Below, piece after piece: positions 28,603 through 63,037 of a DNA stretch of 64,000 nucleotides. A program made the position numbers and the translations under genes. The DNA comes from Desulfosudaceae bacterium (GTDB lineage: Bacteria > Desulfobacterota > Desulfobacteria > Desulfobacterales > Desulfosudaceae): positions 1,760,001 through 1,824,000 of the forward strand of contig CAXXDV010000003.1 in NCBI GenBank assembly GCA_963674745.2, written 5' to 3'. Under the pieces are notes generated by a model. That model worked only from the letters and a program-made list of their open reading frames with translations. It was not told where the DNA came from and ran no database searches. How positions within the stretch are numbered: position 1 is the first letter of the stretch; the number at the start of each line of letters is the position of its first letter.

Positions 28603-30816
28603 ATGACAAAACCGATTCATCCGGCAATAAAAATAAACTTGATACTTCTGGCAATCTGTCTGGCATTTTTCTCCGGATGTTCCGGCGGCGGATCGTCCGG
28701 CAGCAGTAATGAAGATGATTCCAGCATTGCTGACACAGAAACCGGGACAAGTTCCGGCCCCCTGGTGATCAATGAAATCGTTGCAAAAGCAACAGAAGGC
28801 GGCAACGACTGGATCGAGTTCTATGTTTCCGGATCAAACGAAGTAAATTTAAACGACTACACTGTTAGTGACGATAATGAGGAGAATGAACCCGTCGCAC
28901 TGCCGGTAGTCATATTAACGCCGGGAGAATTTTATGTAATTCAGGCCACAGACGATCCTCCGGAAGACGGGTCCGATTATGTGCCCATAAAACTGGGATC
29001 AGATGACTGTGTTAAACTGTTTCAGGGAAATGACCTGATTGACAAACTGGACTGGGATGATGGTGACGCACTGATCGGTTACAGCTATGGCTGTTATCCG
29101 GACGGTTCTAAAAATACGCAGACACTTTCTCCGACTCCGGGATATGAAAATACACCCGCCACACGCGGTCAGCTGGTGATCAATGAAATCATGTGCAAAG
29201 ACAGTGACGGCGGGTTTGACTGGTTTGAGCTGTACAATGCCGGCAATACGGTCGTAAATCCCGGAGATTACCTTATCGTAGACGACGACAAAGACCAGGA
29301 ACCGGCGGCTTTGCCGGATGTGGCCCTTGCTCCGGGCACATTTCTGGTAGTGTACGCAACAGGTGAGGATACCGATCAGACGCTTTATTCGGTCAAATTT
29401 AAACTGGGCGCTTCTGACAGCCTGAGCCTGATGTTAAACGATGAAGTTGTCGATTATATGGAATGGCAGAATTCAGATGCGCCGGAAGGGTTTTCTTATG
29501 GCCTGTATCCGGATGGGTCCTGGGATCATCAGACGCTGGAGGTAACGCCTTCTGCTGCAAATGAACCGGTTGATTTTTTCTCCGAAGATACGGTTGAAAA
29601 AATATATATCGACATGAGCCAGACAGACTGGAACAGTATTCTCGGCAATCCCATGGCTGAAGAATACCACCCTGCTTCCATTACCTATCGGGATGTCACT
29701 TTGGAAGATGTGGCTTTCCGGACCAAGGGCAATTCCAGCCTGAAACATGTTGCCACTACCAACAGCACCAGATTCAGCTTCAAAGTGGATATGAACTATT
29801 ACGTGGACGGCCAGAAGCTGCTGGGCATGAAAAAGATCAACCTGAACAATAATTTTAAAGACCCGTCTTACATGAGAGAGCGTATTGCCTATGATATGCT
29901 GCGTTCTCTTGATGTCCCGGCCCCGCGGCTTTCATATGTAAACCTTTACATCAACGGTTCGCTGCATGGCCTGTACACACTTGTGGAACAGGTTGACAGT
30001 GAATTTTTAGAGAAAAATTTTGATAATTCCGAAGGCGATCTTTACAAGCCGGACGGCACGGGCAGCGACCTGCTATGGCGGGGGACAAATTTTGCCTCAT
30101 ATTCAGGGGTTGAGCTGAAAACCAATGAAGAAAGTACTGAAAATGCCGCGTTTATTAACATGATTGATGAATTAGACAATGGTAATAACCTTGAATCAGT
30201 AATCGATGTGGATGAAGTCCTCCGGTACCTGGCGGTCAGCACCGCCTTGTCCAACCTGGACAGTTACCAGGGGCCGCTGGCGCACAACTACTACATATAT
30301 GAACAGGACGGTGTATTTTCCATCATCCCCTGGGATTTTAACGAGTCCTTCGGCTCTTTTACCATGGGCTGCCAGGACAGCAATGCCATGATCAGCCTCT
30401 ATATTGACGAGCCGACTTCCAGCACTCTGGCCGACCGGCCCCTTATTGCCAGGCTGCTTGAACAGGAAAATTATAAAGCCACTTATCACGAATACATTGA
30501 AGACCTGATATACGGGGTCATGAACCCGGCCATCATTGCCTGGACCATTGAGAATACGAAAAACCTGATCAGCAGCCATGTGGCCAATGATCCCACCGCC
30601 TTTTTTTCCTATGCGGAATTTGAAGCATCCCTGGGATACGTTAATATCGGAGAAATCTTCGGGCTGCAGAATTTTGTGGATAACCGCACGGAAAACATGA
30701 TCGAGCAGCTTTCAGGCATTGAACCCTCTTCCGGGGACGGAAGCGGAAGCTGTGGGGGCCAGGTAAATCCCGGCATGCCGGGTGGCGGACCGGGTATGCC
30801 GCCGCCCAGGCCTTAA
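28603..30816 (+). CDS. CotH kinase-family lipoprotein with two lamin-tail domains
   Basis: Lipobox FSGC; two LVINEI..DWxE domains; KGNSS, DPSYMRE, HNYY, IPWDFN. Confidence 0.88.
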   Translation: MTKPIHPAIKINLILLAICLAFFSGCSGGGSSGSSNEDDSSIADTETGTSSGPLVINEIVAKATEGGNDWIEFYVSGSNEVNLNDYTVSDDNEENEPVALPVVILTPGEFYVIQATDDPPEDGSDYVPIKLGSDDCVKLFQGNDLIDKLDWDDGDALIGYSYGCYPDGSKNTQTLSPTPGYENTPATRGQLVINEIMCKDSDGGFDWFELYNAGNTVVNPGDYLIVDDDKDQEPAALPDVALAPGTFLVVYATGEDTDQTLYSVKFKLGASDSLSLMLNDEVVDYMEWQNSDAPEGFSYGLYPDGSWDHQTLEVTPSAANEPVDFFSEDTVEKIYIDMSQTDWNSILGNPMAEEYHPASITYRDVTLEDVAFRTKGNSSLKHVATTNSTRFSFKVDMNYYVDGQKLLGMKKINLNNNFKDPSYMRERIAYDMLRSLDVPAPRLSYVNLYINGSLHGLYTLVEQVDSEFLEKNFDNSEGDLYKPDGTGSDLLWRGTNFASYSGVELKTNEESTENAAFINMIDELDNGNNLESVIDVDEVLRYLAVSTALSNLDSYQGPLAHNYYIYEQDGVFSIIPWDFNESFGSFTMGCQDSNAMISLYIDEPTSSTLADRPLIARLLEQENYKATYHEYIEDLIYGVMNPAIIAWTIENTKNLISSHVANDPTAFFSYAEFEASLGYVNIGEIFGLQNFVDNRTENMIEQLSGIEPSSGDGSGSCGGQVNPGMPGGGPGMPPPRP

Positions 30817-30864
30817 TGCCGTTTCAGCACGCTTCAACTACTTTAATTAACCGGGGACTTTGTT

Positions 30865-31797
30865 ATGCTGATTGACTCAGGAGTAAGCGATATGAAAACA
30901 AATAATGCCTTGCTGCAACACAGTTTTGAAGCCGGTAAACAGATTGTCGAACCCAACATAAGCCGAAAAGCAATTATGAAAAATTATCGGATTGAGTCTT
31001 TGCTGTCACGATTCAAGCCCCATCGTCTTGATGATCTGAACAATGCCGGCTTGATGAGTCGGGTGGATACAAAATATCTTCTGCCAAACAACAATCTGGA
31101 AAAATTACTGTCGATTCTTTCACCTTTCTATACCGTACTGGAAATAAACTTTTCACGAATATTTCCCTACCAGACGACTTATTTTGACACCTCCGAATTT
31201 GACTTTTATCTGATGCATCATAACGGCAAACAAAACAGGTTTAAAATCCGCCATCGATTATATGTTGATTCCGGTGATCAGTATGTAGAGGTGAAACATA
31301 AAACAAACAAACGGGTAACCCAAAAAGAGCGAATTCTCATCAATGGTAACAGCATCAACAGAGAAGGCCTTAACAATCTGGTTTCCAGGCCGTTTGAAGG
31401 GAACCGGGCACAGCTCTTCAAAACCCTGGTCTGCTCATACGTCAGAATTGCCATGGCAGATGAAAAAAATGGAGAACGGTTGACACTGGATTTTGACCTG
31501 TCGTTTAACGATCCGGATCAGACGCGTTTAAAACAATTAGATCAGGTTTTGATCGCGGAAGTAAAGAGAAGCAGCGTTAAAGCTTCTTCCCGGTTTATGG
31601 ACTTGATGGACCAATTCCGGCATAAACCTGTTTCTTTCTCCAAATACTGCATTGGCTGTGCCCTGCTTCATCCAGAGAGAATTAAGACCAATCGGTTTAA
31701 AGCAACCTTGATGGCCCTCGACAGGATTTCCCGCGAAAGGACCCTACCGGAGGCATTGACAAACAATATGGAGAATAAACATGTTCAACACGCTTGA
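30865..31797 (+). CDS. VTC-domain (polyphosphate polymerase-like) protein
   Basis: RVDTKY, YFDT, KIRHRLY, ERLTLD, FSKYC; start uncertain. Confidence 0.85.
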   Translation: MLIDSGVSDMKTNNALLQHSFEAGKQIVEPNISRKAIMKNYRIESLLSRFKPHRLDDLNNAGLMSRVDTKYLLPNNNLEKLLSILSPFYTVLEINFSRIFPYQTTYFDTSEFDFYLMHHNGKQNRFKIRHRLYVDSGDQYVEVKHKTNKRVTQKERILINGNSINREGLNNLVSRPFEGNRAQLFKTLVCSYVRIAMADEKNGERLTLDFDLSFNDPDQTRLKQLDQVLIAEVKRSSVKASSRFMDLMDQFRHKPVSFSKYCIGCALLHPERIKTNRFKATLMALDRISRERTLPEALTNNMENKHVQHA

Positions 31798-32455
31798 TAT
31801 TAATTTTTTGGGTCGGTTCCTGATCAACACGATGACGCTGTTTGTACTGGTGAAGTATTGTTATTATCGCCGGACACCCAACCGGGACTTCCTGTTCTCA
31901 TTCTTCCTGTTTGGAACCGGCGTATATATTGTGTCCTACCTGCTGCATAACGTCAAGGTGTCCATGGGATTCGCATTCGGTCTGTTTGCCATTTTTTCCA
32001 TGCTCAGATACCGCACGGAAGCCATTTCCATCAAATCCATGACTTATCTGTTTCTGGTCATCACTGTTTCATTATTGTCTGCCGTGGGTCAGACGACCAC
32101 GGTTGAACTGTTGTTACTAAACGCGTTGATATGTGTCTGCACGAGCCTGGCAGAGTCTAAGATGCTGACCCCGCAACTTGCCGAACAAATCGTGCGATAC
32201 GAAAAAATTGAAAATATCCGTCCGCAGAATCGAAAGGCTCTTTTGGATGACCTGCGCCTGCGAACCGGACTAGAGATACGTAATGTATTGATTGATAAAA
32301 TCGATTTTTTAAGAGACACCGCAACACTCAGAATATTTTATGTAGCGGAAGAAAATGCCCTGTTTGTACCGGAGTCATCAAACGTAATATCCTCCTTCTT
32401 TCAAAAACAGCCCTCCTGTACTGCTGAAAACACAAAGCAGACGCAAGAATTATAA
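31781..32455 (+). CDS. DUF4956 membrane protein
   Basis: GFAFGLFAIFSMLRYRT; directly after the VTC gene. Confidence 0.85.
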   Translation: MFNTLDINFLGRFLINTMTLFVLVKYCYYRRTPNRDFLFSFFLFGTGVYIVSYLLHNVKVSMGFAFGLFAIFSMLRYRTEAISIKSMTYLFLVITVSLLSAVGQTTTVELLLLNALICVCTSLAESKMLTPQLAEQIVRYEKIENIRPQNRKALLDDLRLRTGLEIRNVLIDKIDFLRDTATLRIFYVAEENALFVPESSNVISSFFQKQPSCTAENTKQTQEL

Positions 32456-32466
32456 AGGAACGTGTA

Positions 32467-33642
32467 ATGAAAAAACCAGTATCAGGAATTACCTTGCTGA
32501 TCATAGCCGGCATGATATTTTTTCCCGTGGTCGCTTCCGGTGAAATTGATGTCCGGTATACGGATGATGGTTTTAAGATTGCAAACGATGATCAATGGAT
32601 AAAAATCGGTGGTGTCTTAATGTGGGACGTTGATACCGCCAGCGGCACGTTCTGGGATTTTGAAGACGATGATGATGCCTGGCATACACGTTCCGAATTA
32701 AGGCGGGCACGGTTAAATATCAACACCAGGATGTCGAAGAACTGGAAGGCTAAACTTCAATTCAATTACGGGGATGAAGACGGCACTGTTGAAATAAAAG
32801 ATGCCTATGTCGAAAACAACCGATGGAAAATGCTGAATATCATTGTCGGTCAGGACAAAGAACCGTTCGGGCTTGAAAATCTCACCAGCTCTAAAAACCT
32901 GAGTTTTGTTGAACGATCCATGGTTTCCAGCGCTTTCGCGCCGGGACGGAATATTGGCATTTCTCTTAAAGGAGAGATTGCCGTTTTTAACTGGCAGGCA
33001 GGTGTCTATCAGGCTGAAACCCGGGAAGATGACGGCGGTACCTGCGCCCTGTCCGGACGACTGGCAGTTATGCCCTGGAAGACCGGGAACGGCTTTTTCC
33101 ATCTGGGCGTTTCAGGCTCATACCGGGATTATGATGGAGAAAAATTCGAAATTAAAGAATCCGCCCAGATCCATACGGCTGACAATATCATTTTCAGCGA
33201 CGAAATAGATACCGACCACCTTCTGCTATGTGGTCTTGAAACGGCTTTTGGCGTCGGCCCTTTCTCTTTTGCCGCTGAATATATGATGACGGATGTAAAT
33301 GCGATCGCAAAAGAAGATGATGCAGATCTTGAAGGATATTACCTGTCCGCAGGCTGGTTTCTGACAGGGGAAAAACGCCCCTTTAAAAACGGAACCTGGG
33401 GGCGCGTAAAACCAGAGTCACCTTATGGCGCCTTTGAACTGATTGCCAGGTACAGTAGTCTTGACGTTTCTGAAAATAAAATTGGCAGCACTGCAGATGC
33501 CTGCACCGCGGGTGTCAACTGGTATATCAACAATACCGTTTGCCTGATGACCGATTATATGTATTTATCGCTGACCGATAAAGAGACTGATGAAAAAATC
33601 AAAGGAGATGCGGTCTCGCTCCGACTTCAATGCATTTTTTGA
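32467..33642 (+). CDS. OprO/OprP-family phosphate-selective porin
   Basis: ELRRARL, GQDKEPFGLENLTSS, FVERS, GWFLTGE, GVNWY. Confidence 0.88.
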   Translation: MKKPVSGITLLIIAGMIFFPVVASGEIDVRYTDDGFKIANDDQWIKIGGVLMWDVDTASGTFWDFEDDDDAWHTRSELRRARLNINTRMSKNWKAKLQFNYGDEDGTVEIKDAYVENNRWKMLNIIVGQDKEPFGLENLTSSKNLSFVERSMVSSAFAPGRNIGISLKGEIAVFNWQAGVYQAETREDDGGTCALSGRLAVMPWKTGNGFFHLGVSGSYRDYDGEKFEIKESAQIHTADNIIFSDEIDTDHLLLCGLETAFGVGPFSFAAEYMMTDVNAIAKEDDADLEGYYLSAGWFLTGEKRPFKNGTWGRVKPESPYGAFELIARYSSLDVSENKIGSTADACTAGVNWYINNTVCLMTDYMYLSLTDKETDEKIKGDAVSLRLQCIF

Positions 33643-33768: not shown

Positions 33769-35337
33769 ATGAAATCGAATCGCAATAATTTCGGATATGT
33801 CGGGCTGATATGGGTTTTCTGCAGCATCCTGCCTTTTTCTATGATGTTAGCCGCCTGTAACAGCAGCGGCGGCGGAAGCAACAGCGGGACACAACCGACC
33901 ACCTGGTACCAGGATGCGGACAGAGACGGTTACGGCGATCCCGATACGACCCTGGAAGCAGAAACGCCACCCGAAGGCTATGTGACAGACAGCACGGACT
34001 GTAATGACAATAATGCCGGAGTTCATCCGGGTGCGGCTGAAATATGTGACGACGGTCTGGACAATGATTGTGACGGCAACATGGACTGTGATGACAACGA
34101 TTGCAGTGACGACCCGGATTGTGATGACGATGCAGGCGACGGCGTCGACCTGACGTTTCCGGTGGTCGATACGGGGCAGGCTATTTGTTATAACAGTACC
34201 GGAGCCATTATCCCCTCCCCTGCCCGGGGTGAAACCTTTTACGGTCAGGACGCACGGTATACCGGACTTCAACCGGATTATACTGACAACGAAGACGGTA
34301 CGGTCACGGACAACATTACCGGCCTGATGTGGCAACAGAATCCCGGCGACAAGATGACCTGGGACGAGGCAGTGGCCGGCGCCGCCGCTTTCAACCTGGC
34401 CGGTTACGACGACTGGCGCCTGCCGACAATCAAAGAGCTGTATTCCCTGATACTGTTTTCCGGTATCGATCCCAGCGGATATGAAGGTAATGATACGATC
34501 GGGCTAACACCATTTATTGACACGGACTACTTTAATTTTGAATACGGCGATCCCGCAGATGGTGATCGTATTATTGATTCCCAGTGGGCGACCGCGACAA
34601 AATACGTCAGCACGACCATGAACGGTGATGACACCATGTTCGGGGTCAACTTCGCGGATGGTCGGATAAAAGGCTATGGCACCGGCCCCATGCCGGGGCA
34701 GACGGAAGGCAAAAAATTCTTTGTGGTATATGTGCGCGGCAACGATCATTACGGTATCAATGATTTTGCGGACAATGACGACGGCACCATAACCGACAAG
34801 GCCACCGGGTTGATGTGGATGCAGCGGGACAGCGGCCATTTTGCAGCAGGCAGCCGTATGGATGGTTCCCTGACCTGGCAGGAAGCCCTTGCCTGGGCGG
34901 AAGAACTCGATTATGCCGGTTTTTCCGACTGGCGGCTGCCCAGTGCCAAGTCGCTTCAAAGCATCGTGGATTATACGCGATCACCCGCGACAACGGGATC
35001 CGCGGCCATTGACCCGGTATTTCTGTCATCGGTCATCATCGATGAAGGGGGGAATGCCAATTACCCCTTTTACTGGACATCCACCACCCATGCCAACATG
35101 CAGAACGGCGCCAATGCCGCTTACCTGGCCTTTGGCGAGGCCCTGGGATGGATGCAGGACCAGTTCGGCGGAGACTATGCATTGCTGGATGTTCACGGCG
35201 CCGGTGCCCAGCGCAGCGACCCCAAAACCGGTGATCCCGGTGATTACCCTTTCGGGCACGGTCCCCAGGGCGATGTCATCCGCATTTACAATTATGCCCG
35301 GTGTGTCAGGGACATGACGGCCGATAATATCGATTAA
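33769..35337 (+). CDS. DUF1566 (Lcl C-terminal) lipoprotein with Asp/Cys-rich putative metal-binding repeat
   Basis: Lipobox LAAC; DADRDGYG...DCND...EICDDGLDNDCDG; two TGLMWQ/DWRLP units. Confidence 0.85.
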   Translation: MKSNRNNFGYVGLIWVFCSILPFSMMLAACNSSGGGSNSGTQPTTWYQDADRDGYGDPDTTLEAETPPEGYVTDSTDCNDNNAGVHPGAAEICDDGLDNDCDGNMDCDDNDCSDDPDCDDDAGDGVDLTFPVVDTGQAICYNSTGAIIPSPARGETFYGQDARYTGLQPDYTDNEDGTVTDNITGLMWQQNPGDKMTWDEAVAGAAAFNLAGYDDWRLPTIKELYSLILFSGIDPSGYEGNDTIGLTPFIDTDYFNFEYGDPADGDRIIDSQWATATKYVSTTMNGDDTMFGVNFADGRIKGYGTGPMPGQTEGKKFFVVYVRGNDHYGINDFADNDDGTITDKATGLMWMQRDSGHFAAGSRMDGSLTWQEALAWAEELDYAGFSDWRLPSAKSLQSIVDYTRSPATTGSAAIDPVFLSSVIIDEGGNANYPFYWTSTTHANMQNGANAAYLAFGEALGWMQDQFGGDYALLDVHGAGAQRSDPKTGDPGDYPFGHGPQGDVIRIYNYARCVRDMTADNID

Positions 35338-35399
35338 CCACCGCGCGACATTAAAAAGGATAACGTTAATTGTTCGCCGTATCGGGACTTTGTTCCTGT

Positions 35400-37328
35400 T
35401 TATCGGTTCAAACTACGAAGATCGCCCTGCCTGACGGTAAATCCGATTTCATCCAGATATTCAAATACCAGCGTACCCTTTGTGCGGCCAAAGCCCAGAA
35501 TCTCTTTGCTTGCCGCCAGATGAATAGAATCGGTGGTTTTTGCCGCTTCTTTGACACGTTGTTTTATAACGGACAAAGACATTGGCAAAATATAATGATC
35601 GAAGCTGATGCGGACCAGTTCACCGTGACGGCAAAGATAATCAACAATCTGTAGCACTTCTTTTTTACTGATGCGGAGACGGGTGGTATGAAAGAAACTA
35701 CCGATTGAAAACGGCGAATCTCCATTTGCTTCAGCAAAAGCGATAATGCGCCGGCTCAAACGTTCCTGATCGGCGGTGAGATCGCCCTTGAATCCCGGTA
35801 TGGTAAAATCAGAACCATGCTGGTGGACGTTACCACTGTCCACAAGAACCGACAACAAAAAATTGAGCAATGTGTCACTCATTGACGGCTTAAGGTAAGC
35901 CTTTATTTCTTCTTTATTCAGCATAGGGACCAGAGGATGTCCGGCCAGTCTGTTTGTCATGGTTGTGATAATGTTTTCGATATATTTTTCATAGTTGTCT
36001 TTTAGAAAATAACTACCGTCATCCAGCCTGATAATTTTTCCGTTTTTCGTCATAGCCGTCATTTCTATCTGGATCGTAGAAACCGACAGGCCGGTGACGA
36101 CTGAAATTTCGTTTACATCGATTGACCGATCTGCATATCGTTGCAGACATGCCATGATCATTTCAACGGTCCGACCGTTTTTCATGGCGATCAGAAAGTC
36201 GACGGTTTCATCGACATTGTTTTCCTCTAACGAAGTCTCAGATAATTCCAGGATCATACCGCCCCCGATTACCGTCAGGTTGTCCGACAATGTAATGACG
36301 AATCGATCTCCCTTCGCGGCCATAATCGTTTCAACCAGCTCTAACTGCACAAAACCGCTTTCATTTAGGGTCAATGATTTTGTCCGTATCATTTTCAACA
36401 TAGAAATTGTTGCGGTTGTCCCGACATATATAACCACCTGCTGTTCATCGACGACAGGCGAAAAAACTGTCAGAGCAGCATTAATATATCGACTTGTCTT
36501 CCATACGCCCGGCGCGGCCAGGGCCATACCCCAGACGACACTATCAAGAGGAATTCGAGGCAGATTTATTCCGACCCGTTGACCGGCAACGGCTTTATCA
36601 ACCCGAACATGATGGACCTCCAGTGAACGGGCTTTAGTGGTTTTGTTTATCGGCAGCATTACAAACGGGTCGTCAACACAAACCCTGCCTGAAAGAATCG
36701 TACCGCAGACGACCGTACCCACGCCGGGCTTGGCCGTGGCTTTGTCGATCCACATTCGAAAAGGATGATCAATCGGTTTTGGTGGTATTGTTTTCAAGAC
36801 ATCAGACAGACAAGCCATCACATCATTTTTACCGGCATAAGATACGGCTGAAAAAGAAACCACCGGTAAATTCTGTAAAAACGAGCTTTTGATCGCTTCT
36901 CTGACTTCATCCTCAGCCAGACGACTCAACTCTTCATCTACCAGGTCGGTCCGAGATAAAACAATAAATCCATGCCGAATTCCGAACCATCGCATTAAAT
37001 TCAAAAAAGCTATTGTCTGGGGCATTACGCCGTCATCCGCGGCAACCACCAGAATAACCATATCCACCCCACAAAGCCCCCGGAAACTGTCAAGCAGATC
37101 CCGCTGACATACGGGAATTTCGATCAGCGCCGCGACATTGCCAATGTCTGTTTTTAATGGCGTAACATCGCAGCCGAAGGATAACTCGGGCAGTGATCTC
37201 TCTTGAGGCTGCGCAACGGCATCTGTCCCGGTCAGGCAACGGATCAGCATGGATTTGCCGTGGCCAGTGTGACCGGCAACACCGACCGTAACCGCGGGTG
37301 GTTCATGTCGAATATTTTCTGTCTTCAT
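35400..37328 (-). CDS. SelB-like elongation factor paralog with degenerate GTPase motifs
   Basis: VAADDGVMPQT, GVGTVVCGT, AGQRVGINL and C-terminal EYLDEIGFTVRQGDLR winged helix; G1 GHTGHGKS, G3 EIPVC, G4 SRTD. Start placed at MKTEN. Confidence 0.8.
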   Translation of the reverse strand: MKTENIRHEPPAVTVGVAGHTGHGKSMLIRCLTGTDAVAQPQERSLPELSFGCDVTPLKTDIGNVAALIEIPVCQRDLLDSFRGLCGVDMVILVVAADDGVMPQTIAFLNLMRWFGIRHGFIVLSRTDLVDEELSRLAEDEVREAIKSSFLQNLPVVSFSAVSYAGKNDVMACLSDVLKTIPPKPIDHPFRMWIDKATAKPGVGTVVCGTILSGRVCVDDPFVMLPINKTTKARSLEVHHVRVDKAVAGQRVGINLPRIPLDSVVWGMALAAPGVWKTSRYINAALTVFSPVVDEQQVVIYVGTTATISMLKMIRTKSLTLNESGFVQLELVETIMAAKGDRFVITLSDNLTVIGGGMILELSETSLEENNVDETVDFLIAMKNGRTVEMIMACLQRYADRSIDVNEISVVTGLSVSTIQIEMTAMTKNGKIIRLDDGSYFLKDNYEKYIENIITTMTNRLAGHPLVPMLNKEEIKAYLKPSMSDTLLNFLLSVLVDSGNVHQHGSDFTIPGFKGDLTADQERLSRRIIAFAEANGDSPFSIGSFFHTTRLRISKKEVLQIVDYLCRHGELVRISFDHYILPMSLSVIKQRVKEAAKTTDSIHLAASKEILGFGRTKGTLVFEYLDEIGFTVRQGDLRSLNR

Positions 37329-37553
37329 AGACCAATAACCCCAAACAATCGCTATTCGGACGAGCAGTCTGTGTTGCGATTCGTTATCCAGCCGAGTAAC
37401 CAAACGCATGGGCGACCGCCGGGCGCCCATGCAGAGCTAGCCACGATGGCGAGTTGTGGGACAGGCTGTTCAGCTTTTCGCTTAACGGATTAACTCCTGC
37501 GCCTTGCAAAAGGCGCCGGGGATTCAGGTTCGGATCCTGTGAGATATTTTGGA

Positions 37554-37862
37554 CTAATCCGCTCCACAATTACCGCAACAACTGCCGCATCCCCCGCCCA
37601 GTTCCAGATTGGAAGTGATTTTAAATCCCCATTCGTTAAAATCAACTTCGATTGGTTGGGCTTTTATCAGCAGGTTTTTGTCGATGACATAAGTAAACTC
37701 ACCCATTTTAAATGACTTGTCCTCAGCCTTTTGTACGTCTACGGCCATGGCGAACTGAGAACCGCTGCAACCCTGGTTTAAAAAAATCCGTATCGGTTGA
37801 ACCTCCTTGCCTTCAAAGTAACGGCCGATTTCCTCATTGGCGCTTTCAGTTACATTCAACAT
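37554..37862 (-). CDS. IscA/HesB-family protein, Cys form
   Basis: MLNVTESA...IRIFLNQGCSGSQFAMAVD and a C-terminal GGGCGSC; RBS AAGGGGAG. Confidence 0.85.
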   Translation of the reverse strand: MLNVTESANEEIGRYFEGKEVQPIRIFLNQGCSGSQFAMAVDVQKAEDKSFKMGEFTYVIDKNLLIKAQPIEVDFNEWGFKITSNLELGGGCGSCCGNCGAD

Positions 37863-37904
37863 ATCAATTCTCCCTTTAAACACTGATAATGATCCTGACT
37901 GTTC

Positions 37905-38273
37905 TCAATTGCTCCTCTCAACCAGATGCAGGTTCTGCTGTATAATCTTCCGGTGCAGCAGGTGATTTATCTGTTGGCATAGATCCATGCAGATAAACCT
38001 CAGATACCGAGCCTGGCAACCGCGGTTCGGATCGATATTTTCCAGAAAATAATGAAAAAAAATCGTGTCCGGTCCCATGGTCTCAAGCAATGCAGTCAGC
38101 CGTTCGGCCAGCGGATAATAATCATCGATATCGACCGGCTCCAAAATGATTTGATTAACAATCTTCCTGATTTCTGAAAACTCGATTGGATGATCACGGA
38201 TCGCTGACTCTGATTTACTGATGCTAGCCTGACAATTCTGTACTAATTTTTCCATCGGCTTAATTTGACTCAT
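37905..38273 (-). CDS. Hypothetical protein
   Basis: 122-aa ORF with RBS, tightly packed in the operon. Confidence 0.65.
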   Translation of the reverse strand: MSQIKPMEKLVQNCQASISKSESAIRDHPIEFSEIRKIVNQIILEPVDIDDYYPLAERLTALLETMGPDTIFFHYFLENIDPNRGCQARYLRFICMDLCQQINHLLHRKIIQQNLHLVERSN

Positions 38274-38292
38274 GCGTATTCCTTATCGCTCT

Positions 38293-39603
38293 TTAATAAC
38301 CCGGCAGATTCACTTCGGCCAAATCCGGCCACAGGTATGTTCTTTCGTTTTCGCCCAGTATTCCCAGAGAGAGGGCGATAATCGTCCATAAATGAACGGC
38401 ACGGTAAGCCCCATCTCCGTGATGTTCACCCAGTTCTTCGATCTGGGCATGACAGTTGTGGCAGGGCGTAATGACATAGGGCGCGCCGGTAGCCATTACC
38501 TGGCGGTGTTTCAGCAACCCATAAGCCAACCGTTGCTCTTTATAACCGGATTGCAAAAATCCGCCCCCACCGCCACAACAGAAATTATTGGACTTGTTGG
38601 GCGTTACTTCGATAAAATTTTCTTCACCGACACAGGTCTTAATAACAAACCGCAAATCATCTGCCAGGGGATCACCAAAGCTTTTGCGGACCTGTTGACA
38701 GGGGTCCTGAACCGTAAATTTTACCTGTAGATCTTTGTTCCAATCGGCGTTAACCTTCAACCTGCCCTCACGGATCCAGCGGGCGTAATACGGCACAATA
38801 GGTTCAATTTCCAGGTCGGTTGGAATGTTATGGCGCTTCTGGCCCATCCACACCGAATATGTGGCGTGACCGCATTCGGTGTTCAAATATACTTTGCATC
38901 CGAGTTCACCGGCTCTATCCAGCGATTTTTGGGTTACGGTCTTCCAGCCCTCATCATCAGCCAGAAACATGCAATAATTTTCTCCGCCCCAACCGACACG
39001 ACTGTAAGTCCAGTCCGCTCCGGCCAGATGAAGAATTTTCCAGAGCGGAACCATTTCTTCCGGTTCCGTTACAGGTTCGCGTGAATTCTGAGTCAGAAAA
39101 AAATGGGCATTCTGCTTATCGATCGGCGCCTGCAGGTCCTCCCACTCGGACTGCGTATCTCGGACTTCATCCAGTATATCCTCAACGACAAACTGAAAAT
39201 CATCTTCCGGTGTTCCCATGGCACTGCAACTGTCGTTTTTCAAGGCCATATCACATGAACCGAGAATCCCCCTGGGTCGTTCTTCCCGTGGCCAGAGCTG
39301 CCTTGCTTCATAAACAATGGCGGCGATATCAATTTCCATCGGGCAGACATGAACACAACGTTTGCACATGGAACACATCCAAACCCATGGATGCTTAGAT
39401 ATGGCATCTTCCATGCCCAGGGAAACCATACGCACGAATTTTCTCGGGTCCATGTTTTCCAGACCGGTCGCCGGGCAGCCGGAGGCACAGGCGCCACATG
39501 TCAAACAAAGATTCATGTTGGCACCATTAGGAATCTTGTTCATAATTTTTTCTTTAAAAGGTGAACTGACTTGCTCACTAATTTTAACCGCTTCAGTTGT
39601 CAT
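38293..39603 (-). CDS. HdrD-like (Fe-S)-binding CCG-domain oxidoreductase
   Basis: CLTCGACASGCP, CSMCKRCVHVCP, QDPC, CCGGGGG, PCHNC. Confidence 0.88.
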   Translation of the reverse strand: MTTEAVKISEQVSSPFKEKIMNKIPNGANMNLCLTCGACASGCPATGLENMDPRKFVRMVSLGMEDAISKHPWVWMCSMCKRCVHVCPMEIDIAAIVYEARQLWPREERPRGILGSCDMALKNDSCSAMGTPEDDFQFVVEDILDEVRDTQSEWEDLQAPIDKQNAHFFLTQNSREPVTEPEEMVPLWKILHLAGADWTYSRVGWGGENYCMFLADDEGWKTVTQKSLDRAGELGCKVYLNTECGHATYSVWMGQKRHNIPTDLEIEPIVPYYARWIREGRLKVNADWNKDLQVKFTVQDPCQQVRKSFGDPLADDLRFVIKTCVGEENFIEVTPNKSNNFCCGGGGGFLQSGYKEQRLAYGLLKHRQVMATGAPYVITPCHNCHAQIEELGEHHGDGAYRAVHLWTIIALSLGILGENERTYLWPDLAEVNLPGY

Positions 39604-39740
39604 TTCCTTCTCCTCTCTAATCCAGCGTTAAACTTTTACAGAATTCAGATCGACTAAAAAGGGTATGAAGCTTCGGCCGGTCTGATTTTTAGTCTTACAA
39701 AACCGAGCTCCGGCCGGAATCCTGAAACAGTCTGAAAATT

Positions 39741-39863
39741 CTAGATAGTGCCGATAAGGGGAAAAGATGAACTGCACATCGATTTTTCAGCTGCTTCAGC
39801 ACCTACCGAACCCGGGCAGGTTGGGATACAATTTGCTCAAGTAAAGCCGAAAAACCGGTACAT
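39741..39863 (-). CDS. Candidate selenocysteine-containing leader peptide (40 aa with read-through)
   Basis: ATG at 39863; MYRFFGFT-UGA(39837-39839)-ANCIPTCPGSVGAEAAEKSMCSSSFPLIGTI-TAG; hairpin ACCTGCC-CGGGTTC-GGTAGGT starts 15 nt after the UGA. Confidence 0.45.
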
Positions 39864-39893
39864 AAAATTTTGCCTTATAAAAATTTTGATGCT

Positions 39894-39968
39894 AATTTAT
39901 TGTGATGGCGCCTGAATGTCAAAGTGATTATATTGATAATTATAATAAATATTATTGATAGAATCTAT
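39894..39968 (-). promoter_or_regulatory. Sigma70 promoter with two LysR-like boxes (island promoter 1)
   Basis: ATAGATTCTATCAAT, 16 nt, ATCAATATAATCACT, TTGACA, 17 nt, TAAATT. Confidence 0.65.
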
Positions 39969-40051
39969 ATACTGGTTCCAACACTTACCGGCGATAATGA
40001 GCGTAATATTACCCCAAACGGTGAACATATTTAAAAATACGAAAGAGAGAC

Positions 40052-40666
40052 TTGATGACACGAAAACATTTTTTTACCATGGCCGTCATCGCCATATTGG
40101 CTTTCATGTTGAGTGGTTGCGGCTTTACCGCCATAAACCTGAACCCGGATGTGCCGATTATTATAAGAGCAGAGCCGGATTATCCTAAAGCCATTGTAAT
40201 ATTTGACAGCTGGAGCGGCAATACCACCCTGGTGGCGGAAGTAATAGCCGAACAGCTGAATGCCCCGGCTGTCTCGGTGGCCCAAACCTGCGATTACGAC
40301 ATGGCTGATTTTGATTTGATTGTCGTGGGGTCTCCGGTTCACGGCGGGCGGCCGACCGAAGAGATAAAGGCTTTTCTGGCTGAACTCCCCAAACCCTGCA
40401 TGTCAGCGGTGTTTGTCACCTTCGGAGCACCGCTGTTCGGGCCGATGACGGCTAACGCCTGCCTGAAGAAAATGGAAAAAAGCCTGCAGGGAACCAGCCT
40501 GGGCAAATTTAAGTGTCACGGACGCCACAAAATCCTCCGTACCTATCCCAGTCACCCGGATGAAAAAGATACCGCAGACGCAACACGTTTTGCTCTTGAA
40601 CTGCTCGATCGCTGCCAGAACAATAGCCAGTCAATATCGTCGGAGCCAATTGACGAAGAAAATTGA
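40052..40666 (+). CDS. Flavodoxin-family lipoprotein
   Basis: Lipobox LSGC; SWSGNT; VGSPVH. Confidence 0.82.
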   Translation: MMTRKHFFTMAVIAILAFMLSGCGFTAINLNPDVPIIIRAEPDYPKAIVIFDSWSGNTTLVAEVIAEQLNAPAVSVAQTCDYDMADFDLIVVGSPVHGGRPTEEIKAFLAELPKPCMSAVFVTFGAPLFGPMTANACLKKMEKSLQGTSLGKFKCHGRHKILRTYPSHPDEKDTADATRFALELLDRCQNNSQSISSEPIDEEN

Positions 40667-40726
40667 TCAGGTCGGATTAAATAATGAAATATCCAGGCTA
40701 CGACCGAACAAACCGGCACGATAACG

Positions 40727-41728
40727 TCACTTATCCGTGGCAAAAAATTTTGACGACCCCTCCAATGTTTCACAGCCACATTCTTTAAAAAGAGCCTGAC
40801 AACTGGGGACGCTTTCTCCCCTTCCTTCTTCAGTTTTTTCCCGATTATCCCGGGGGTTAGCGCCGACTTCCGCCCAGAAAAGACTGGCCCCGGCCAAACC
40901 ACCGAGTGTACATGGTTCGTGGGTGCAATTACCCTTAACTGTTCGGGGCATTCCCAGTCGAGTGACTGCAACAATCTGGGCCATCCGCAATTCTGTAATC
41001 ATGCCCAGTTTTGCCATCTCCGTACCTGGAATGGAAATTCTCCGTGCCGCACCGCTGTAAGCCGGATTTAATGAAGCGGTCAACAGAATCATATCGGCCA
41101 GTTCTTCATTGGAATGTTCAGGACCGACCGGCTCCACACAAGTGCCCACCATTAAACCTGCTTCCTGAAAATTACGAATACTTGCAATCCTGGCCTCTGG
41201 ATTAAGGCCCGTGTCTTTTCCTTCTCTTAATCGCCTGGCGTGATATACCCCTGAATATCCGGCATCTTTAATCTTTCTGGCATTCTCCAGGGACTGATCA
41301 CCGATATTGGCGATCATCATGGTTGATGGGTCCAAGTTCTTTCTGATTTCCTGAGAAATCTCAATAAACGCCGAAAAAGAATAATTAGCCGTGATCATAA
41401 CATAAACCGCATTAGCGCCATCGGCTTCAAATTGTCTGGCATAAGCAATGGCATCGTCTATGCTGATAATCGTTTCATCTTGAAAAACACCGTTAATCGT
41501 TGCAAATGAACAAAATTTGCAATTGCAGGGACAGGGCGCAAGATTTAGGGCAAACTGGGCATGAACTTCCGCCTTGTTATCTGTCAGCTCCTTTGATATC
41601 CGGTTGGCTTCAGCCATGATTAGAAAAGACTCAACAGAATCCGATGGAAAACTAAGCATACGAACCAGTTCTTCGCGCGAAAAGCGTATGCCGTCCCCTG
41701 ATTTTTTTATCAGATCATCTATATGCAT
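40727..41728 (-). CDS. Radical SAM protein, biotin-synthase-like fold
   Basis: CPCNCKFCSF; CVEPVGPEH; GANPRD. Confidence 0.85.
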   Translation of the reverse strand: MHIDDLIKKSGDGIRFSREELVRMLSFPSDSVESFLIMAEANRISKELTDNKAEVHAQFALNLAPCPCNCKFCSFATINGVFQDETIISIDDAIAYARQFEADGANAVYVMITANYSFSAFIEISQEIRKNLDPSTMMIANIGDQSLENARKIKDAGYSGVYHARRLREGKDTGLNPEARIASIRNFQEAGLMVGTCVEPVGPEHSNEELADMILLTASLNPAYSGAARRISIPGTEMAKLGMITELRMAQIVAVTRLGMPRTVKGNCTHEPCTLGGLAGASLFWAEVGANPRDNREKTEEGRGESVPSCQALFKECGCETLEGSSKFFATDK

Positions 41729-44839: not shown

Positions 44840-45700
44840 CTAAGGCACCATTTTATTCCACTCGGCCGTGCCGCCTTCAAAATTGACTGCCGAAGGAGAC
44901 CCGGCCATTTGATGGACCAACCAGGCATACCCGGACCTGATACCGCCCGTGCAGTAGTACACGACGGTCCCGTCCGGTTTGATATCATCATTTGCCAGCA
45001 GTGATTTTAGTTCGGAACGGCCGATCGGTTGCCGGTGTGGACCGGTAAAAAATTTTTCCCATGAGATATGCACGGAATCAGGAATGCGCCCTTTGATCCA
45101 CTCAAAAGTCGAACGGGTATCGACCAGCTGATAAGACGATGGATCGTTTCGAATTTCTTGTGCCGAGATGTTAAGCGAGGGGTTAATCTGATAATGATAG
45201 ACAGATGCCGCTTTATTCAAATTTTTTGCACCGGTTTTCACAGAAAGTCCCTTACCGGTCCAGGCCTGTATACCGCCATTGAGCAGGCGGACCTTGCCCT
45301 GATGACCGATCCAGGCCAAGGCCCAGCAGGCCCAACCTTCTCCGCCCCAACTTGTATCGGCGTCTCCGTAAACAACAAGAGCGGCGTTTTCGCTTATTCC
45401 CATTTCACCCAGTGCTTCAGCCAGCTGATCGGGCGGAAATGTCCGGTAAGGTATGCCTTTTTCGTCGGTTCTGGTATAGTCCTCCCAGCAAAAGGAAGCT
45501 GCTCCGGGTATATGACCGGCCTGCCATTCTTTTTGGGGTCTTGCGTCCAGAATAGTCCAGGCCGAAAGGGTTTGACTCAATTCACCCGTTTCGATTAAAC
45601 CAAGATCAAATGCCTGAGATTTCCCGGGGACTGCAAAATAAGCTGATAATGCAAAAACAATCGCCATGACAAATGCTTTTCGATATAAAAACGTGTACAT
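44840..45700 (-). CDS. Exported two-domain rhodanese/sulfurtransferase
   Basis: Signal peptide, GHIPGA, YCTGGIRS; GGGAG RBS. Confidence 0.9.
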   Translation of the reverse strand: MYTFLYRKAFVMAIVFALSAYFAVPGKSQAFDLGLIETGELSQTLSAWTILDARPQKEWQAGHIPGAASFCWEDYTRTDEKGIPYRTFPPDQLAEALGEMGISENAALVVYGDADTSWGGEGWACWALAWIGHQGKVRLLNGGIQAWTGKGLSVKTGAKNLNKAASVYHYQINPSLNISAQEIRNDPSSYQLVDTRSTFEWIKGRIPDSVHISWEKFFTGPHRQPIGRSELKSLLANDDIKPDGTVVYYCTGGIRSGYAWLVHQMAGSPSAVNFEGGTAEWNKMVP

Positions 45701-59710: not shown

Positions 59711-60499
59711 TTAAATCTCCAGGACCAGCCCCACCGGGCAATGATCCGAGCCGAAAACAGTATTGTCGATAAAGGCGTCCTTGAGCCAGCCTTTGGACAC
59801 GATATCTTCGGTTACAAAGAAATAATCGATACGCCACCCGACATTCCGGTCCCGGGCTTTGAAGCGATAGGTCCACCACGAATACTTGACAGTATCCGGA
59901 TACAGATGCCGGAACGTATCCACATAACCGTCGTCGATTATCCGGTCCAGCCAGTCCCGCTCGATCCGCATAAAGCCTGATGTTTTCTCATTAGCCTTGG
60001 GGTTTTTCAGATCGATCTCGTTGTGAGCGGTATTATAATCCCCGCAGATCACCAGGCTCCGCCCCTGCTTGCGGTATTCATCCGCATAAGCAAAAAAATC
60101 ACGATAAAAATCAAGCTTATATGTGAGCCGCTCGTCACTCATCTGACCGTTGGGAAAATAAATGTTAAAATAAATAAAATCGCCCAGATCCAGCTCAAGG
60201 ATACGCCCTTCATTATCGTATTCCGGCCGGCCGATGCCGGTTTTAACCTTTTGAGCCGCCATCCGGGAATATGCGGCCACCCCACTGTATCCTTTTTTTA
60301 CCGAGGCATAAGACCAGAAAGAGTCGTAGCCGTCAATGCTCGCCATTTCATCAGTGACCTGGGCTTCCTGCAGCTTGGTTTCCTGTATCCCGACCACATC
60401 GGCATCCAGGCTTTTAAAGGTCTCTAAAAACCCTTTTCCCATAACCGCCCTCAGACCGTTGACGTTCCAGGATACCAGTTTAATCTTTCGTTTGGCCAT
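59711..60499 (-). CDS. xth: Exodeoxyribonuclease III
   Basis: SWNVNGLRA, QETK, GDYN, GWRIDYF, SDHCP. Confidence 0.95.
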   Translation of the reverse strand: MAKRKIKLVSWNVNGLRAVMGKGFLETFKSLDADVVGIQETKLQEAQVTDEMASIDGYDSFWSYASVKKGYSGVAAYSRMAAQKVKTGIGRPEYDNEGRILELDLGDFIYFNIYFPNGQMSDERLTYKLDFYRDFFAYADEYRKQGRSLVICGDYNTAHNEIDLKNPKANEKTSGFMRIERDWLDRIIDDGYVDTFRHLYPDTVKYSWWTYRFKARDRNVGWRIDYFFVTEDIVSKGWLKDAFIDNTVFGSDHCPVGLVLEI

Positions 60500-60983
60500 T
60501 CGATCCCCTTGTTCGTCTATTGCAGGTTGGCTGTTCTTTTGACACCATTATCCATACCATGTAAAATGGTAAAAGTTCAAATTATCAATCGGATCGTTTT
60601 TTCTTGTATTCGGCTCTCAAACCACCACACTTAAAAATCCAACGGGCTCTTAACCCCCATCCGATTTTTCGGGCCACAAAGTACCGAACCTGCTCTTTCG
60701 AAACGATTGACTTTGAAAACAAACAATTACTGAACTCTTCCATAGTTCCGCCCTGAACCTGAAAACAAATTGATAAGTAAAACCAAAATTATCGAGAAGT
60801 TCCGACTAAGACACCCATATGGCACGAAAACAAGAATGGCAAAACTATTAAAATTTAGCCTTATTTAATATAAAATATTGATTTCTATTTATTTATCTGT
60901 ACAAATAGAGCTTAACATAATTCGCTTGTAATTAATAAAAGTTATAGCTAATTATATCCATGGGGGATGTAATCGAGAAATTC

Positions 60984-61004
60984 TATCTAATAACATTGTT
61001 ATAT
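60984..61004 (+). other. Putative attI site (first crossover G/TTATAT at 60998)
   Basis: TATCTAATAACATT-GTTATAT. GTTATATT is the complement of AATATAAC, which ends cassette 1, and no attC arm lies upstream. Confidence 0.55.
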
Positions 61005-61083
61005 TTATTAATCATCGAATAGATTTATGAGAAGATAAAATCGATTTAATTACCAAAAAAATAGAAAAATTTGATCTTAAAAA

Positions 61084-61284
61084 ATGAAAATGGAAAATGA
61101 TTCACCAATACTCGTATCTATTTTGATTATTATAGCTGTTCTATCAACTGTGTTAATATGTTTTGGAGATGTCTTTCTCGCTATTTGTTTGGAAGGAATA
61201 GGGACCGGGGTTGTATTGATTATATATCTTATAAAAATTAAATTCTTTTCTCGTAAATCAGATGAGCTGACTAATAAAATATGA
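61084..61284 (+). CDS. Cassette 1: small 2-TM hypothetical protein
   Basis: ORF ends immediately before attC1. Confidence 0.6.
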   Translation: MKMENDSPILVSILIIIAVLSTVLICFGDVFLAICLEGIGTGVVLIIYLIKIKFFSRKSDELTNKI

Positions 61285-61408
61285 ATATAACAACGCCACC
61301 CACACGGACTCGCAGGGGCGGGCTTCTTTTGTCCTGGCATAGTTTGGTGTTGAACTCACTTTAGCGAAGTCTGCAACCCCTCCTCGCCGGTGGTGGCGGA
61401 CGTTGTGC
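61285..61408 (+). repeat. attC site 1 (type A)
   Basis: ATATAAC...GCCACCCAC / GTGGTGGC...GTTGTGC. Confidence 0.88.
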
Positions 61409-61426
61409 CTACAAGAAGAAGGCGTT

Positions 61427-61834
61427 ATGGAAAACACCAAATCAAAGATTTCAAGCTCATCTGAAAACAGTTTAGAGGTTTTGCCACCTTCAAAAAATGG
61501 AAAAGGCATAGTGATACTTGGTGGTATTATCACTTTTTTCGGATGTATGATTTTATTTATCCCGATTGTTCATATCTTGCCTGAAGGATTCAAAAGGCAA
61601 TACACGCCGGTAATCGTTATTGGAGCACTTGTGTTGATGATAGGCATAGGATTGATACGAAGATATTACTGGGCCTGGATTGCAAGTATCTGCATCTTTA
61701 CATTAAGTGTTGCGAGCAGTATCATTAACATTGCGACAAGGCATGATCAAAAGGCCATTTCAAATGCAATAATTGCTTTGCTTATATTAATTGCTTTAGC
61801 CAAATTCAAAAATCAGATAAAACGCAAGCATTAG
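61427..61834 (+). CDS. Cassette 2: 4-TM hypothetical protein
   Basis: MENTK start after GAAGG; hydrophobic helices. Confidence 0.7.
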   Translation: MENTKSKISSSSENSLEVLPPSKNGKGIVILGGIITFFGCMILFIPIVHILPEGFKRQYTPVIVIGALVLMIGIGLIRRYYWAWIASICIFTLSVASSIINIATRHDQKAISNAIIALLILIALAKFKNQIKRKH

Positions 61835-61857
61835 TATTTTAGACATAATTTATTTTG

Positions 61858-61984
61858 GCACAACAAGGCCGCGCAAAGGAGAGCCAGGGCATTCGGTTTT
61901 GAAAAGTCGGGGGAGAACGAACATTAACCATCTTTAAGGCAAGTCAGTGGAAGCCCTGGCTCCCATTGGCGGCCGACGTTATAT
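61858..61984 (+). repeat. attC site 2 (type B)
   Basis: GCACAAC...GGCCGCGCAA / TTGGCGGCC...GTTATAT. Confidence 0.88.
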
Positions 61985-62396
61985 GCAAAATGGAATGAAC
62001 AAAAATACACAAATTTATTACAGCTTTTATAGCCTTTTTCTTGGTATATTTATTTCATCTGGAATTCTATTTTGGACAAATAAATTAAATTGGTTGTTCA
62101 TCGTATTTTTGGGCTTTTTTTGTTTTATCCTTACTTACTTTTTTTTGAACAAACTATCCATTGTGATAATTAGTAGCTTTTTATTAGCGTTTTTCTGGGC
62201 AATTACTGCACCAGGCTGGATCGATTCAAATGATCCCAACAGTTATGAGCGCGTTAATCTATTAGGGTATTTTGCTGGTTTTTGCTTTTTGATTTTTATT
62301 GTGAGTGTTGTCCTGTCACTGACGAAACGTATAGTATCTCGATATAGCATTTCAGAAAATATTGATGAAAAAAACAATAATTCAGGGAGCATATAA
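61983..62396 (+). CDS. Cassette 3: membrane hypothetical protein
   Basis: Stop TAA lies within the ATATAAC inverse core, as is typical of cassettes. Confidence 0.7.
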   Translation: MQNGMNKNTQIYYSFYSLFLGIFISSGILFWTNKLNWLFIVFLGFFCFILTYFFLNKLSIVIISSFLLAFFWAITAPGWIDSNDPNSYERVNLLGYFAGFCFLIFIVSVVLSLTKRIVSRYSISENIDEKNNNSGSI

Positions 62397-62518: not shown

Positions 62519-62534
62519 GTATAAAGAATATGCG

Positions 62535-63032: not shown

Positions 63033-63037
63033 GAATC

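Follow-up and report, generated by a model that had tools for sequence, protein, structure and literature searches.

A probably orphaned SelB*-class paralogue with decayed GTPase motifs, encoded downstream of a conserved leader RNA in a Desulfosudaceae genome

SelB* proteins, relatives of the selenocysteine (Sec) elongation factor SelB, are thought, by hypothesis, to deliver Cys-tRNA to UGA codons. They were described in Syntrophobacterales and Desulfobacterales as products of a second selB gene, selB*, located downstream of selC* (Mukai et al. 2017, NAR 45:2776, PMC5389517; also PMC7609411). The selC* gene encodes a tRNA-Cys with the 8/4 shape of the selenocysteine tRNA (tRNA-Sec), often with a UCA anticodon and an A1:U72 pair, and in a subgroup only, selB* is followed by cysS*, which encodes a cysteinyl-tRNA synthetase (CysRS) lacking the anticodon-binding domain (PMC5389517). 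Here we analyze a SelB*-class paralogue encoded in a 64,000-nucleotide stretch of a Desulfosudaceae genome (C3:1760001-1824000), hereafter called the window. The genome assembly consists of 5.55 Mb on 3 contigs and is 99.96% complete. Like the SelB* already described, the paralogue accompanies a first SelB in a genome of the same order that uses Sec, with related loci that include Desulfobacteraceae and Desulfatibacillum; in the tree it lies within the clade formed by SelBs next to selC*, and it has class signatures and neighbouring genes in common with them. Unlike them, it has no selC* either adjacent or elsewhere in the genome, it has lost the catalytic His, the Gly and Asp of the DxxG motif, the switch I Thr and the P-loop Asp, and the conservation of its domains is inverted.

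Compared with canonical SelB, the paralogue has the same domain order (G domain, domains II and III, and winged helices WH1 to WH4), and the closest solved chains are both SelB (4zu9_A, E = 1.3e-47; 5lzb_z, E = 3.8e-36). It departs from canonical SelB in its low identity, in its score below the cut-off of the selB family TIGR00475, in the loss of G motifs and in a changed pocket motif in domain II. In E. coli, SelB regulates its own synthesis through an element in the selAB leader that resembles the selenocysteine insertion sequence (SECIS); a protein of the SelB type can thus use its SECIS-binding end on the leader of an mRNA and outside decoding. In that autoregulation, which is named in PMC8124441, the working factor is itself the regulator, whereas here the candidate regulator is a GTPase-dead paralogue and the leader belongs to no Rfam family. 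The archaeal aSelBL (Atkinson et al. 2011, PMC3037878; PMC4342817) and MM1309 (PMC4329189) represent a comparable course of evolution, in which a copy of SelB departs from the delivery of tRNA driven by GTP hydrolysis, but aSelBL is archaeal, stems from an independent duplication and does not have the bacterial winged-helix SECIS-binding extension. In the excerpts of the literature searched, which did not cover a 2018 follow-up (PMC6103700), we found no description of tRNA-less or GTPase-dead forms of SelB*. SelB* is thus already known; what appears to be new is a sub-clade that has no partner tRNA, is catalytically dead and shows the constraint on its domains inverted.

The paralogue gene (Table 1) is an unbroken reading frame of 642 amino acids (aa) plus stop. 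The longest frame on this strand (35400..37430, 676 aa) extends further upstream; the 642-aa form starting at ATG 37328 is preferred because the three closest homologues begin within a few residues of this position. Pfam recognizes GTP_EFTU (residues 83-178 alone match), GTP_EFTU_D2, Beta-barrel_SelB and SelB-wing_3 (25.0 bits; cut-off 23.2), and WH2 falls under its cut-off (17.8 vs 22.3 bits). NCBIfam TIGR00475 aligns end to end, residues 13-640 of the protein to positions 1-579 of the 581 in the profile, with 240.1 bits, under the cut-off of 242.25 (239.9 bits in the whole-genome scan, likewise not over it). The protein is collinear over 635 columns with the canonical SelB of its own genome, to which it is 25% identical. 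An initial annotation, made from the letters of the window, had recognized a full SelB architecture in an intact 642-aa open reading frame (ORF), and both hold.

The G domain is heavily altered. Relative to the canonical SelB of its own genome, G1 is GHTGHGKS instead of GHIDHGKS (P-loop retained, Asp gone), switch I is ERSLPELSF instead of EKRRGITIE (Thr gone), G3 is IEIPVC instead of VDVPGH (Asp to Glu, Gly to Val and His to Cys), and MPQTIAFLN replaces MPQTREHMD, so that REH becomes IAF. Retained are the guanine-specificity Asp of G4 (SRTD vs TKID), the SA motif of G5 (FSAVSYAG) and the C-terminal winged-helix motif ...GRTKGTLVFEYLDEIGFTVRQGDLRSL. The changes in G1, G3 and G4 and the preserved C-terminal winged helix had been noticed in the initial annotation, and this comparison bears them out. 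In GTPases the switch I Thr and the DxxG Gly read the gamma-phosphate. Judged by its sequence, the paralogue is a putative pseudo-GTPase, with catalytic residues lost and fold-defining sequence and frame kept.

To place these losses in context, 262 sequences were sorted into classes by their domain II motif. Canonical SelBs keep GHxDHGK in 81/81 cases and DxPGH in 81/81, so the motif loss in the paralogue is beyond ordinary variation. Full-length SelB*-class proteins keep DxPGH in 109 of 120 (it is absent in 11) and GHxDHGK in 104 of 120; the 49 unclassified sequences include four further variants, with Thr, Asn (twice) or Glu at the position of the catalytic His. There are at least four separate replacements of this His, by Tyr/Cys, Arg, Ser and Gln. 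The SelB* class thus appears loose in its G domain and prone to such loss in comparison with canonical SelB. A sub-lineage carrying the His-to-Gln replacement (DVPGQ) comprises the SelB*-class proteins P0179, P0195, P0224, P0240 and P0241 and the locus L111.

A search of 1.84 billion representatives returned relatives at graded identities of 63%, 42%, 39% and so on to about 30%, merging into canonical SelB at about 28%; further relatives, with 57%, 48% and 43% identity, came from a 90%-clustered database. Signatures of the 30-40% tier are GVAGHVDHGKT, RGLSIE, DVPGHTDF, LSKxDL, FRLWIDQ in domain II and, at the C-terminus, ILGYGR...EYLDxIGFTxRxGDxR. Two class signatures that the window protein has in common with its relatives, one from domain II (R[LM]W[IV]D) and one from WH4 (G[YF]GR...EYLDxIGFT), were derived here and not taken from Mukai et al. 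In a quick IQ-TREE phylogeny of 65 rows, with support from the Shimodaira-Hasegawa-like approximate likelihood-ratio test (SH-aLRT), the SelB* class is split from canonical SelB (SH-aLRT 99). The window protein and its five nearest relatives form a 6-row clade (99) nested in a 13-row clade (97) that includes the selC*-adjacent loci L114 and L115. The gene can thus be assigned to the SelB* class and is not a decayed duplicate of its own genome's selB. The initial annotation was right in calling it a paralogue but missed its membership of the SelB* class and the loss of the partner tRNA.

The genomic surroundings of the relatives agree with this assignment. A same-strand tRNA-Sec-like gene lies upstream in 29/34 related loci, 28 with a UCA and 1 with a GCA anticodon. 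The exceptions are L117, where a contig end cuts the locus and no upstream tRNA is seen, G059, where selC* lies 9.6 kb upstream on the same contig, and L113, L116 and L130, which belong to a separate tRNA-less clade. The 29 tRNAs, with a mean identity of 90% on their alignment, show A1:U72, U73 and the UCA anticodon; by A1:U72 and the anticodon they fit the selC* of Mukai et al. A contig scan with generic patterns returned 80 loci, mostly canonical SelB, of which L017, L018, L021 and L058 were of use. The second, independent tRNA-less SelB*-class clade (L113/L140 in G210, L116/L138 in G272 and L130/L139 in G172) has GHVGHGK and an intact PGH. It adjoins hdrD(Cys), the cysteine form of an hdrD-like gene (68-70% identity), and a gene for an HdrL-like fusion protein of 1480 aa; in G172 it also has an FdhA-like gene beside it. 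Canonical selB and tRNA-Sec are present and selC* is absent in all three genomes. The approximately unbiased (AU) test rejects uniting the two tRNA-less clades (delta lnL 53.2, p-AU 0.0096, for a group named after the tree had been seen). No further member of the window sub-clade was found in 401 order (E<=1e-128), 401 class and 401 phylum (E<=1e-135) representative genomes, where only G335, at 39% identity, was recovered, and two metagenome scans gave no relative closer than 33%.

The window protein has no partner tRNA. A covariance model was built from the 29 selC* genes, with true selC* genes scoring 77-116 bits. It has no match in the 64-kb window, and in the whole genome the genuine tRNA-Sec alone is matched, at 34.1 bits. 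ARAGORN likewise finds no tRNA in the window, and one tRNA-SeC and one ordinary tRNA-Cys in the genome. In the syntenic loci, selC* occupies the position of the iscA-selB* spacer. The row in G222 is an hdrD-like gene (72% identity), unk122 (a gene for a conserved 122-aa protein), iscA/hesB, selC* and selB*, with a six-domain rhodanese and a radical-SAM gene nearby; that in G027 is hdrD ... iscA, selC*, unk122 and selB*; that in G335 is iscA, selC*, selB* and then a putative selenium transporter of the YedE family. The window keeps the G222 row with a 225-nucleotide (nt) spacer where the tRNA stands. The ancestral module is the leader RNA described below, hdrD(Cys), unk122, iscA/hesB, selC* and selB*, as in G222, and the key event at this locus is the loss of selC*, which is missing both in the spacer and genome-wide.

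Run without filters, the selC* model scores no higher than 10.5 bits in the spacer, at 37485-37566 of the opposite strand. This place, right after the iscA stop, holds a nested hairpin the size of a tRNA, and on the plus strand it presents a 7-bp acceptor-like stem, a 7-nt loop with GCA and a UCCA end. It has no D arm or T loop, the sense-strand bases fold as a nested hairpin, and folding of the whole 242-nt spacer gives z = -1.16. It is not counted as a selC* relic; a match by chance, an attenuator and a scrambled relic are all conceivable.

Along the lineage to the window protein, G3 has decayed stepwise. It is DxPGH in P0155 and P0003 (43% and 42% identity to the window protein), EAPGH in P0154 (48%), EIPAY in P0153 (57%) and P0002 (62%), and EIPVC in the window protein itself; the P-loop and the guanine-specificity Asp stay. 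The four members of the inner sub-clade, at 48-62% identity, are all full length (642-660 aa). Their mean pairwise identities are 48% for the G domain, 66.5% for domain II, 47% for domain III, 46% for WH1-2, 63% for WH3 and 74% for WH4 (54% overall). In the same order, the values are 62, 53, 47, 29, 37 and 51% (47% overall) for 15 selC*-linked SelB* proteins and 62, 52, 52, 23, 24 and 40% (44% overall) for 11 canonical SelBs. The pattern of conservation is thus reversed relative to the working factors, with domain II and WH3-WH4 high and the G domain low. In canonical SelB, WH3-WH4 is the part that binds SECIS RNA, and in factors of the EF-Tu type domain II forms the pocket for the aminoacyl end. 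By this reversed conservation, the function that survives would lie in domain II and at the end made of winged helices. The paralogue is probably under purifying selection and hence functional. Neutral evolution, which the initial annotation had named as an outcome that would speak against it, is not what the four full-length lineages show.

The second SelB coexists with a complete Sec apparatus. A canonical selB with every G motif intact lies at C1:1156265-1158157 (TIGR00475, 369.8 bits), selA at C1:1763363, selD, with one in-frame TGA, at C1:326061, and a single tRNA-Sec gene (selC) at C3:1015585-1015682. The suspicion that the window gene is not the working Sec factor, raised together with the observation that selA, selC and selD lie outside the window, is supported by these genes, among them the canonical selB for which the initial annotation had proposed to look. 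Upstream of the canonical selB, an HdrD-like gene (C1:1158500-1159840; locus L164, 8544-9839, minus strand) contains an in-frame TGA that gives NTEUGH with Sec at residue 244, and a hairpin lies 17 nt past this TGA. Thus selB adjoins the Sec form of hdrD and selB* the Cys form. The hdrD-like genes beside SelB* have the Cys form in 7/7 loci checked, and no Sec codon that could be a local task for SelB* was found in the hdrD-like genes of these 7 loci or in the iscA of the window. No cysS* adjoins the paralogue. A second cysS-like gene (C1:1551314-1552714; 352 bits, over the cut-off) lies far from the window within a 795-aa open frame; its match covers profile positions 1-458 of 466 and does not look truncated, unlike the CysRS* without an anticodon-binding domain.

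The row from hdrD(Cys) to selB* is headed by a structured leader RNA of about 100 nt. The initial annotation had pointed to a hairpin at 39801-39821; it exists and is conserved, but it does not stand alone, being the apical part of the larger structure, with a stem of 39815-39820 paired with 39802-39807 and a loop at 39808-39814. The upstream regions of hdrD(Cys) have a box, a variable linker and the apical hairpin in common. Searched with a pattern for its 5' part, the leader is found in 32/401 genomes of the order, each time as a single occurrence; the reversed control pattern has 0 matches, and in its own genome the leader is present in a single copy (77.7 bits). An alignment of 30 sequences (loci L165-L194) shows the 3' strand of the basal helix P1, outside the search pattern, pairing in 98.6% of cells, the apical stem in 96% and a weaker middle helix in 70%; both sides have changed in 14 cells, compared with 5.7 +/- 2.2 in shuffled alignments (0/500 reach the observed value). 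For the copy in the window, folding gives this long hairpin too (z = -2.38). The conserved box is read as RNA because its partner strand, which was not searched for, pairs so consistently, and a sigma-54 or other DNA site was rejected on the same ground. With Rfam 15, the region 35000-41000 gives three chance-level matches only at E<=10, so the leader is without an Rfam family, and no description of it was found in excerpts of the literature on riboswitches and RNA motifs with YedE or selenium-responsive elements. A sigma-70-like promoter match lies upstream of the leader (39894-39922); such matches are not enriched in the region.

Among the 30 leader loci, the leader precedes an HdrD-like gene in 18, the window included (one of them only 30% identical), a YedE-family selenium transporter in 2, a double-cubane reductase in 2, the OS_HP2 (seleno)protein family in 2 and, after a small ORF, the small subunit of a molybdo-enzyme in 1. 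It precedes selC* followed by SelB*, by YedF or by an ExtI-like porin in 1 locus each, and an FdhA-like gene in 2 loci (L191 and L192), followed at L192 by the clade-B SelB. Directly downstream of the leader, selC* is found in 4/30 loci, and in 1 it is divergent; L167 is also counted among the HdrD-like loci, with selC* between the leader and a distant HdrD-like gene. Of the 300 genomes that entered both searches, the strict leader pattern is present in 26, 32 a SelB*-class gene (E<=1e-85) and 9 both, figures that are descriptive only, as the genomes are related and the pattern is strict. Since 17 of the 26 leader-bearing genomes are without a SelB*-class gene at this threshold, the action of the leader cannot depend on the paralogue; leader and SelB* are associated, and the leader does not need SelB*. 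G-rich apical loops likewise occur in the real SECIS elements of the genome, which follow the UGA codons of hdrD(Sec) and selD, though two elements are too few to score their likeness to the leader tip. The leader is a candidate selenium-status riboswitch or protein-bound leader.

Taken together, the gene is very probably an orphaned SelB* with a dead GTPase. The protein probably still binds nucleotide and would not be a ribosome-activated GTPase, because neither the Thr of switch I nor the Gly of DxxG nor the catalytic His remains, and hence it would not deliver tRNA; with selC* absent, it would also be without a dedicated cargo. The job it retains would be independent of hydrolysis and carried by the RNA-binding end, most likely that of a competitor or regulator which binds hairpins of the SECIS or a SECIS-like kind. 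It could target selenoprotein mRNAs at their SECIS elements, or the leader at its SECIS-like tip, and it would act when the operon, which appears to be part of a selenium-status regulon, is on. We give about an even chance to the whole explanation, an orphaned SelB* kept for a hydrolysis-independent role in RNA binding; that the function itself is RNA binding or regulation we would put slightly short of even. A more specific form, in which an elongation factor has turned into a dedicated RNA-binding regulator that tunes an undescribed selenium-status regulon via the leader tip or SECIS elements, is unlikely. In that form, the leader would control, across the Desulfobacterales, isoenzymes of the Cys form, YedE as a putative transporter of selenium, YedF, and the recoding of UGA to Cys by selC* and SelB*.

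Several observations weigh against the RNA-binding explanation. The RNA binding is inferred from one feature, the conservation of WH3-WH4, and domain II is as conserved as these helices, which would also fit a protein still holding tRNA. The Gln form at L111 (PGQ) still has selC* adjacent; catalytic-His loss thus recurs beside selC*, and motif loss alone is no proof of a lost tRNA-linked role. The 225-nt spacer before selB* may hold a promoter of its own, separate from the leader. The relatives P0002, P0153, P0154, P0155 and P0003 are known from protein sequences alone, and the synteny is that of G222, G027 and G335. G010, of the same genus and 99% complete, keeps the rhodanese and radical-SAM genes and is without the leader, hdrD(Cys), unk122, iscA and the paralogue, so that these genes behave as one module, and the module is dispensable. 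This last point, with the missing partner tRNA, the lost catalytic motifs and the rarity of the sub-clade, found in no other genome among the order, class and phylum representatives, is what would be expected of a slowly decaying relic, useless since the loss of selC* and intact for want of time. We regard such a relic as unlikely: uneven conservation and full-length frames in four diverged lineages speak against early pseudogenisation, and neutral drift would not give a WH4 so much better conserved than the G domain, the reverse of working SelBs.

A quite unlikely alternative is that the protein holds Sec-tRNA-Sec or Cys-tRNA via domains I and II, sequestering it or handing it over without ribosome-triggered hydrolysis, and so buffers charged tRNA or brakes Sec insertion as a dominant negative. 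The retained P-loop (GHxxHGKS), guanine-specificity Asp and SA motif and the high conservation of domain II would suit such a carrier, and excess SelB may sequester Sec-tRNA-Sec through its very high affinity (PMC8124441). From general knowledge of GTPases, however, the loss of the switch I Thr and the DxxG Gly makes a GTP-dependent tRNA-binding conformation doubtful; moreover, the residue after the WID motif of domain II differs within the sub-clade (K, K, R, Q) and the genome has no dedicated tRNA. Rated a shade lower still, and quite improbable, is a role through protein-protein contacts rather than RNA, in the trafficking of sulfur, selenium or Fe-S together with the HdrD-like protein, IscA/HesB, unk122 and the rhodaneses. 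The conserved linkage with hdrD(Cys), unk122 and iscA/hesB in G222, G027 and G335 would agree with it, as would the hdrD(Cys) linkage of the second tRNA-less clade, which the AU test, for its post hoc group, keeps apart from the first; co-regulation under one leader explains the linkage equally well, and the best-conserved parts are winged helices, which bind RNA in canonical SelB. That the paralogue serves in Sec elongation as the working factor, or as a second one, is very improbable. Its full architecture and near-threshold TIGR00475 score are set against a canonical selB with all motifs present in the same genome, against the invariance in the 81 canonical SelBs examined of two motifs of which the paralogue has neither, and against a tree that places it in the SelB* class.

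Table 1. Features of the selB* locus and its surroundings (window coordinates)
Feature	Position	Strand	Remarks
SelB*-class paralogue gene	35400..37328	-	642 aa plus stop
WH3-WH4, residues 506-642	35403..35813	-	Pfam SelB-wing_3; most conserved part of the sub-clade
Domain II, residues 190-280	36489..36761	-	FRMWID, the SelB*-class signature, replaces canonical RLP[IV]DR
G domain, residues 13-180	36789..37292	-	decayed catalytic motifs; least conserved large domain in the sub-clade
G4 SRTD	36945-36956	-	motif comparison
G3 EIPVC	37107-37121	-	motif comparison
G1 GHTGHGKS	37251-37274	-	motif comparison
iscA-selB* spacer, 225 nt	37329..37553	-	position of selC* in syntenic loci; no tRNA here
IscA/HesB-family gene	37554..37862	-	NF038090, 97.5 bits; Cys codons throughout, no in-frame TGA
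unk122, conserved 122-aa protein	37905..38273	-	conserved in G222 and G027
HdrD-like Fe-S/CCG protein, Cys form NTECGH	38293..39603	-	68% identical to hdrD(Sec) (NTEUGH) beside canonical selB on C1
Structured leader RNA, about 100 nt	39764..39863	-	P1 strands 39846-39854 / 39783-39791; apical hairpin 39802-39820, loop CGGGUUC
BioB-like radical-SAM gene	40727-41728	-	also beside the selC*-selB* cluster of G222
Six-domain rhodanese, 942 aa	41842-44670	-	also beside the selC*-selB* cluster of G222; weak match to ExtH, a rhodanese of selenite/tellurite reduction
Two-domain rhodanese	44840-45700	-	Pfam/NCBIfam

Among the neighbouring genes, iscA/hesB adjoins selC*-selB* in G222, G027 and G335. Its listed ORF extends to a GTG at 37883, and ATG 37862 has a purine-rich stretch upstream; NCBIfam flags the family NF038090 as having selenoprotein members. 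No Pfam or NCBIfam family matches unk122, and its matches in the protein atlas (<=0.80) are uninformative. Pairs of Sec and Cys isoenzymes that replace each other under selenium limitation have been discussed for a related sulfate reducer (PMC2702500), and in Methanococcus such a switch is documented, with the yedE transcript rising on selenium depletion (PMC11097638). Further away, the plus-strand row at 28603-33642 encodes a CotH kinase-like protein with lamin-tail domains, a VTC-domain protein, a DUF4956 protein and a phosphate-selective porin with a weak ExtI-like match; it resembles a polyphosphate/phosphate cluster and is followed by an Lcl_C/MopE-motif protein (33769-35337). The G+C content is 0.38-0.40 at 60001-64000, compared with about 0.50 in the rest of the window, and this segment may be foreign.

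In 2017, SelB* was noted merely as a second selB beside an odd tRNA-Cys. The locus described here shows a fate that may follow the loss of the partner tRNA: the factor is kept, its GTPase chemistry appears to have been shed and its RNA-binding end has become more constrained. It would thus be a natural experiment on how translational GTPases become pseudoenzymes and a bacterial parallel to the archaeal aSelBL. The locus also places SelB* and selC* under an unannotated leader RNA that is common to genes for selenium uptake and for Cys isoforms, by which selenium-status sensing in sulfate reducers becomes a directly testable question.

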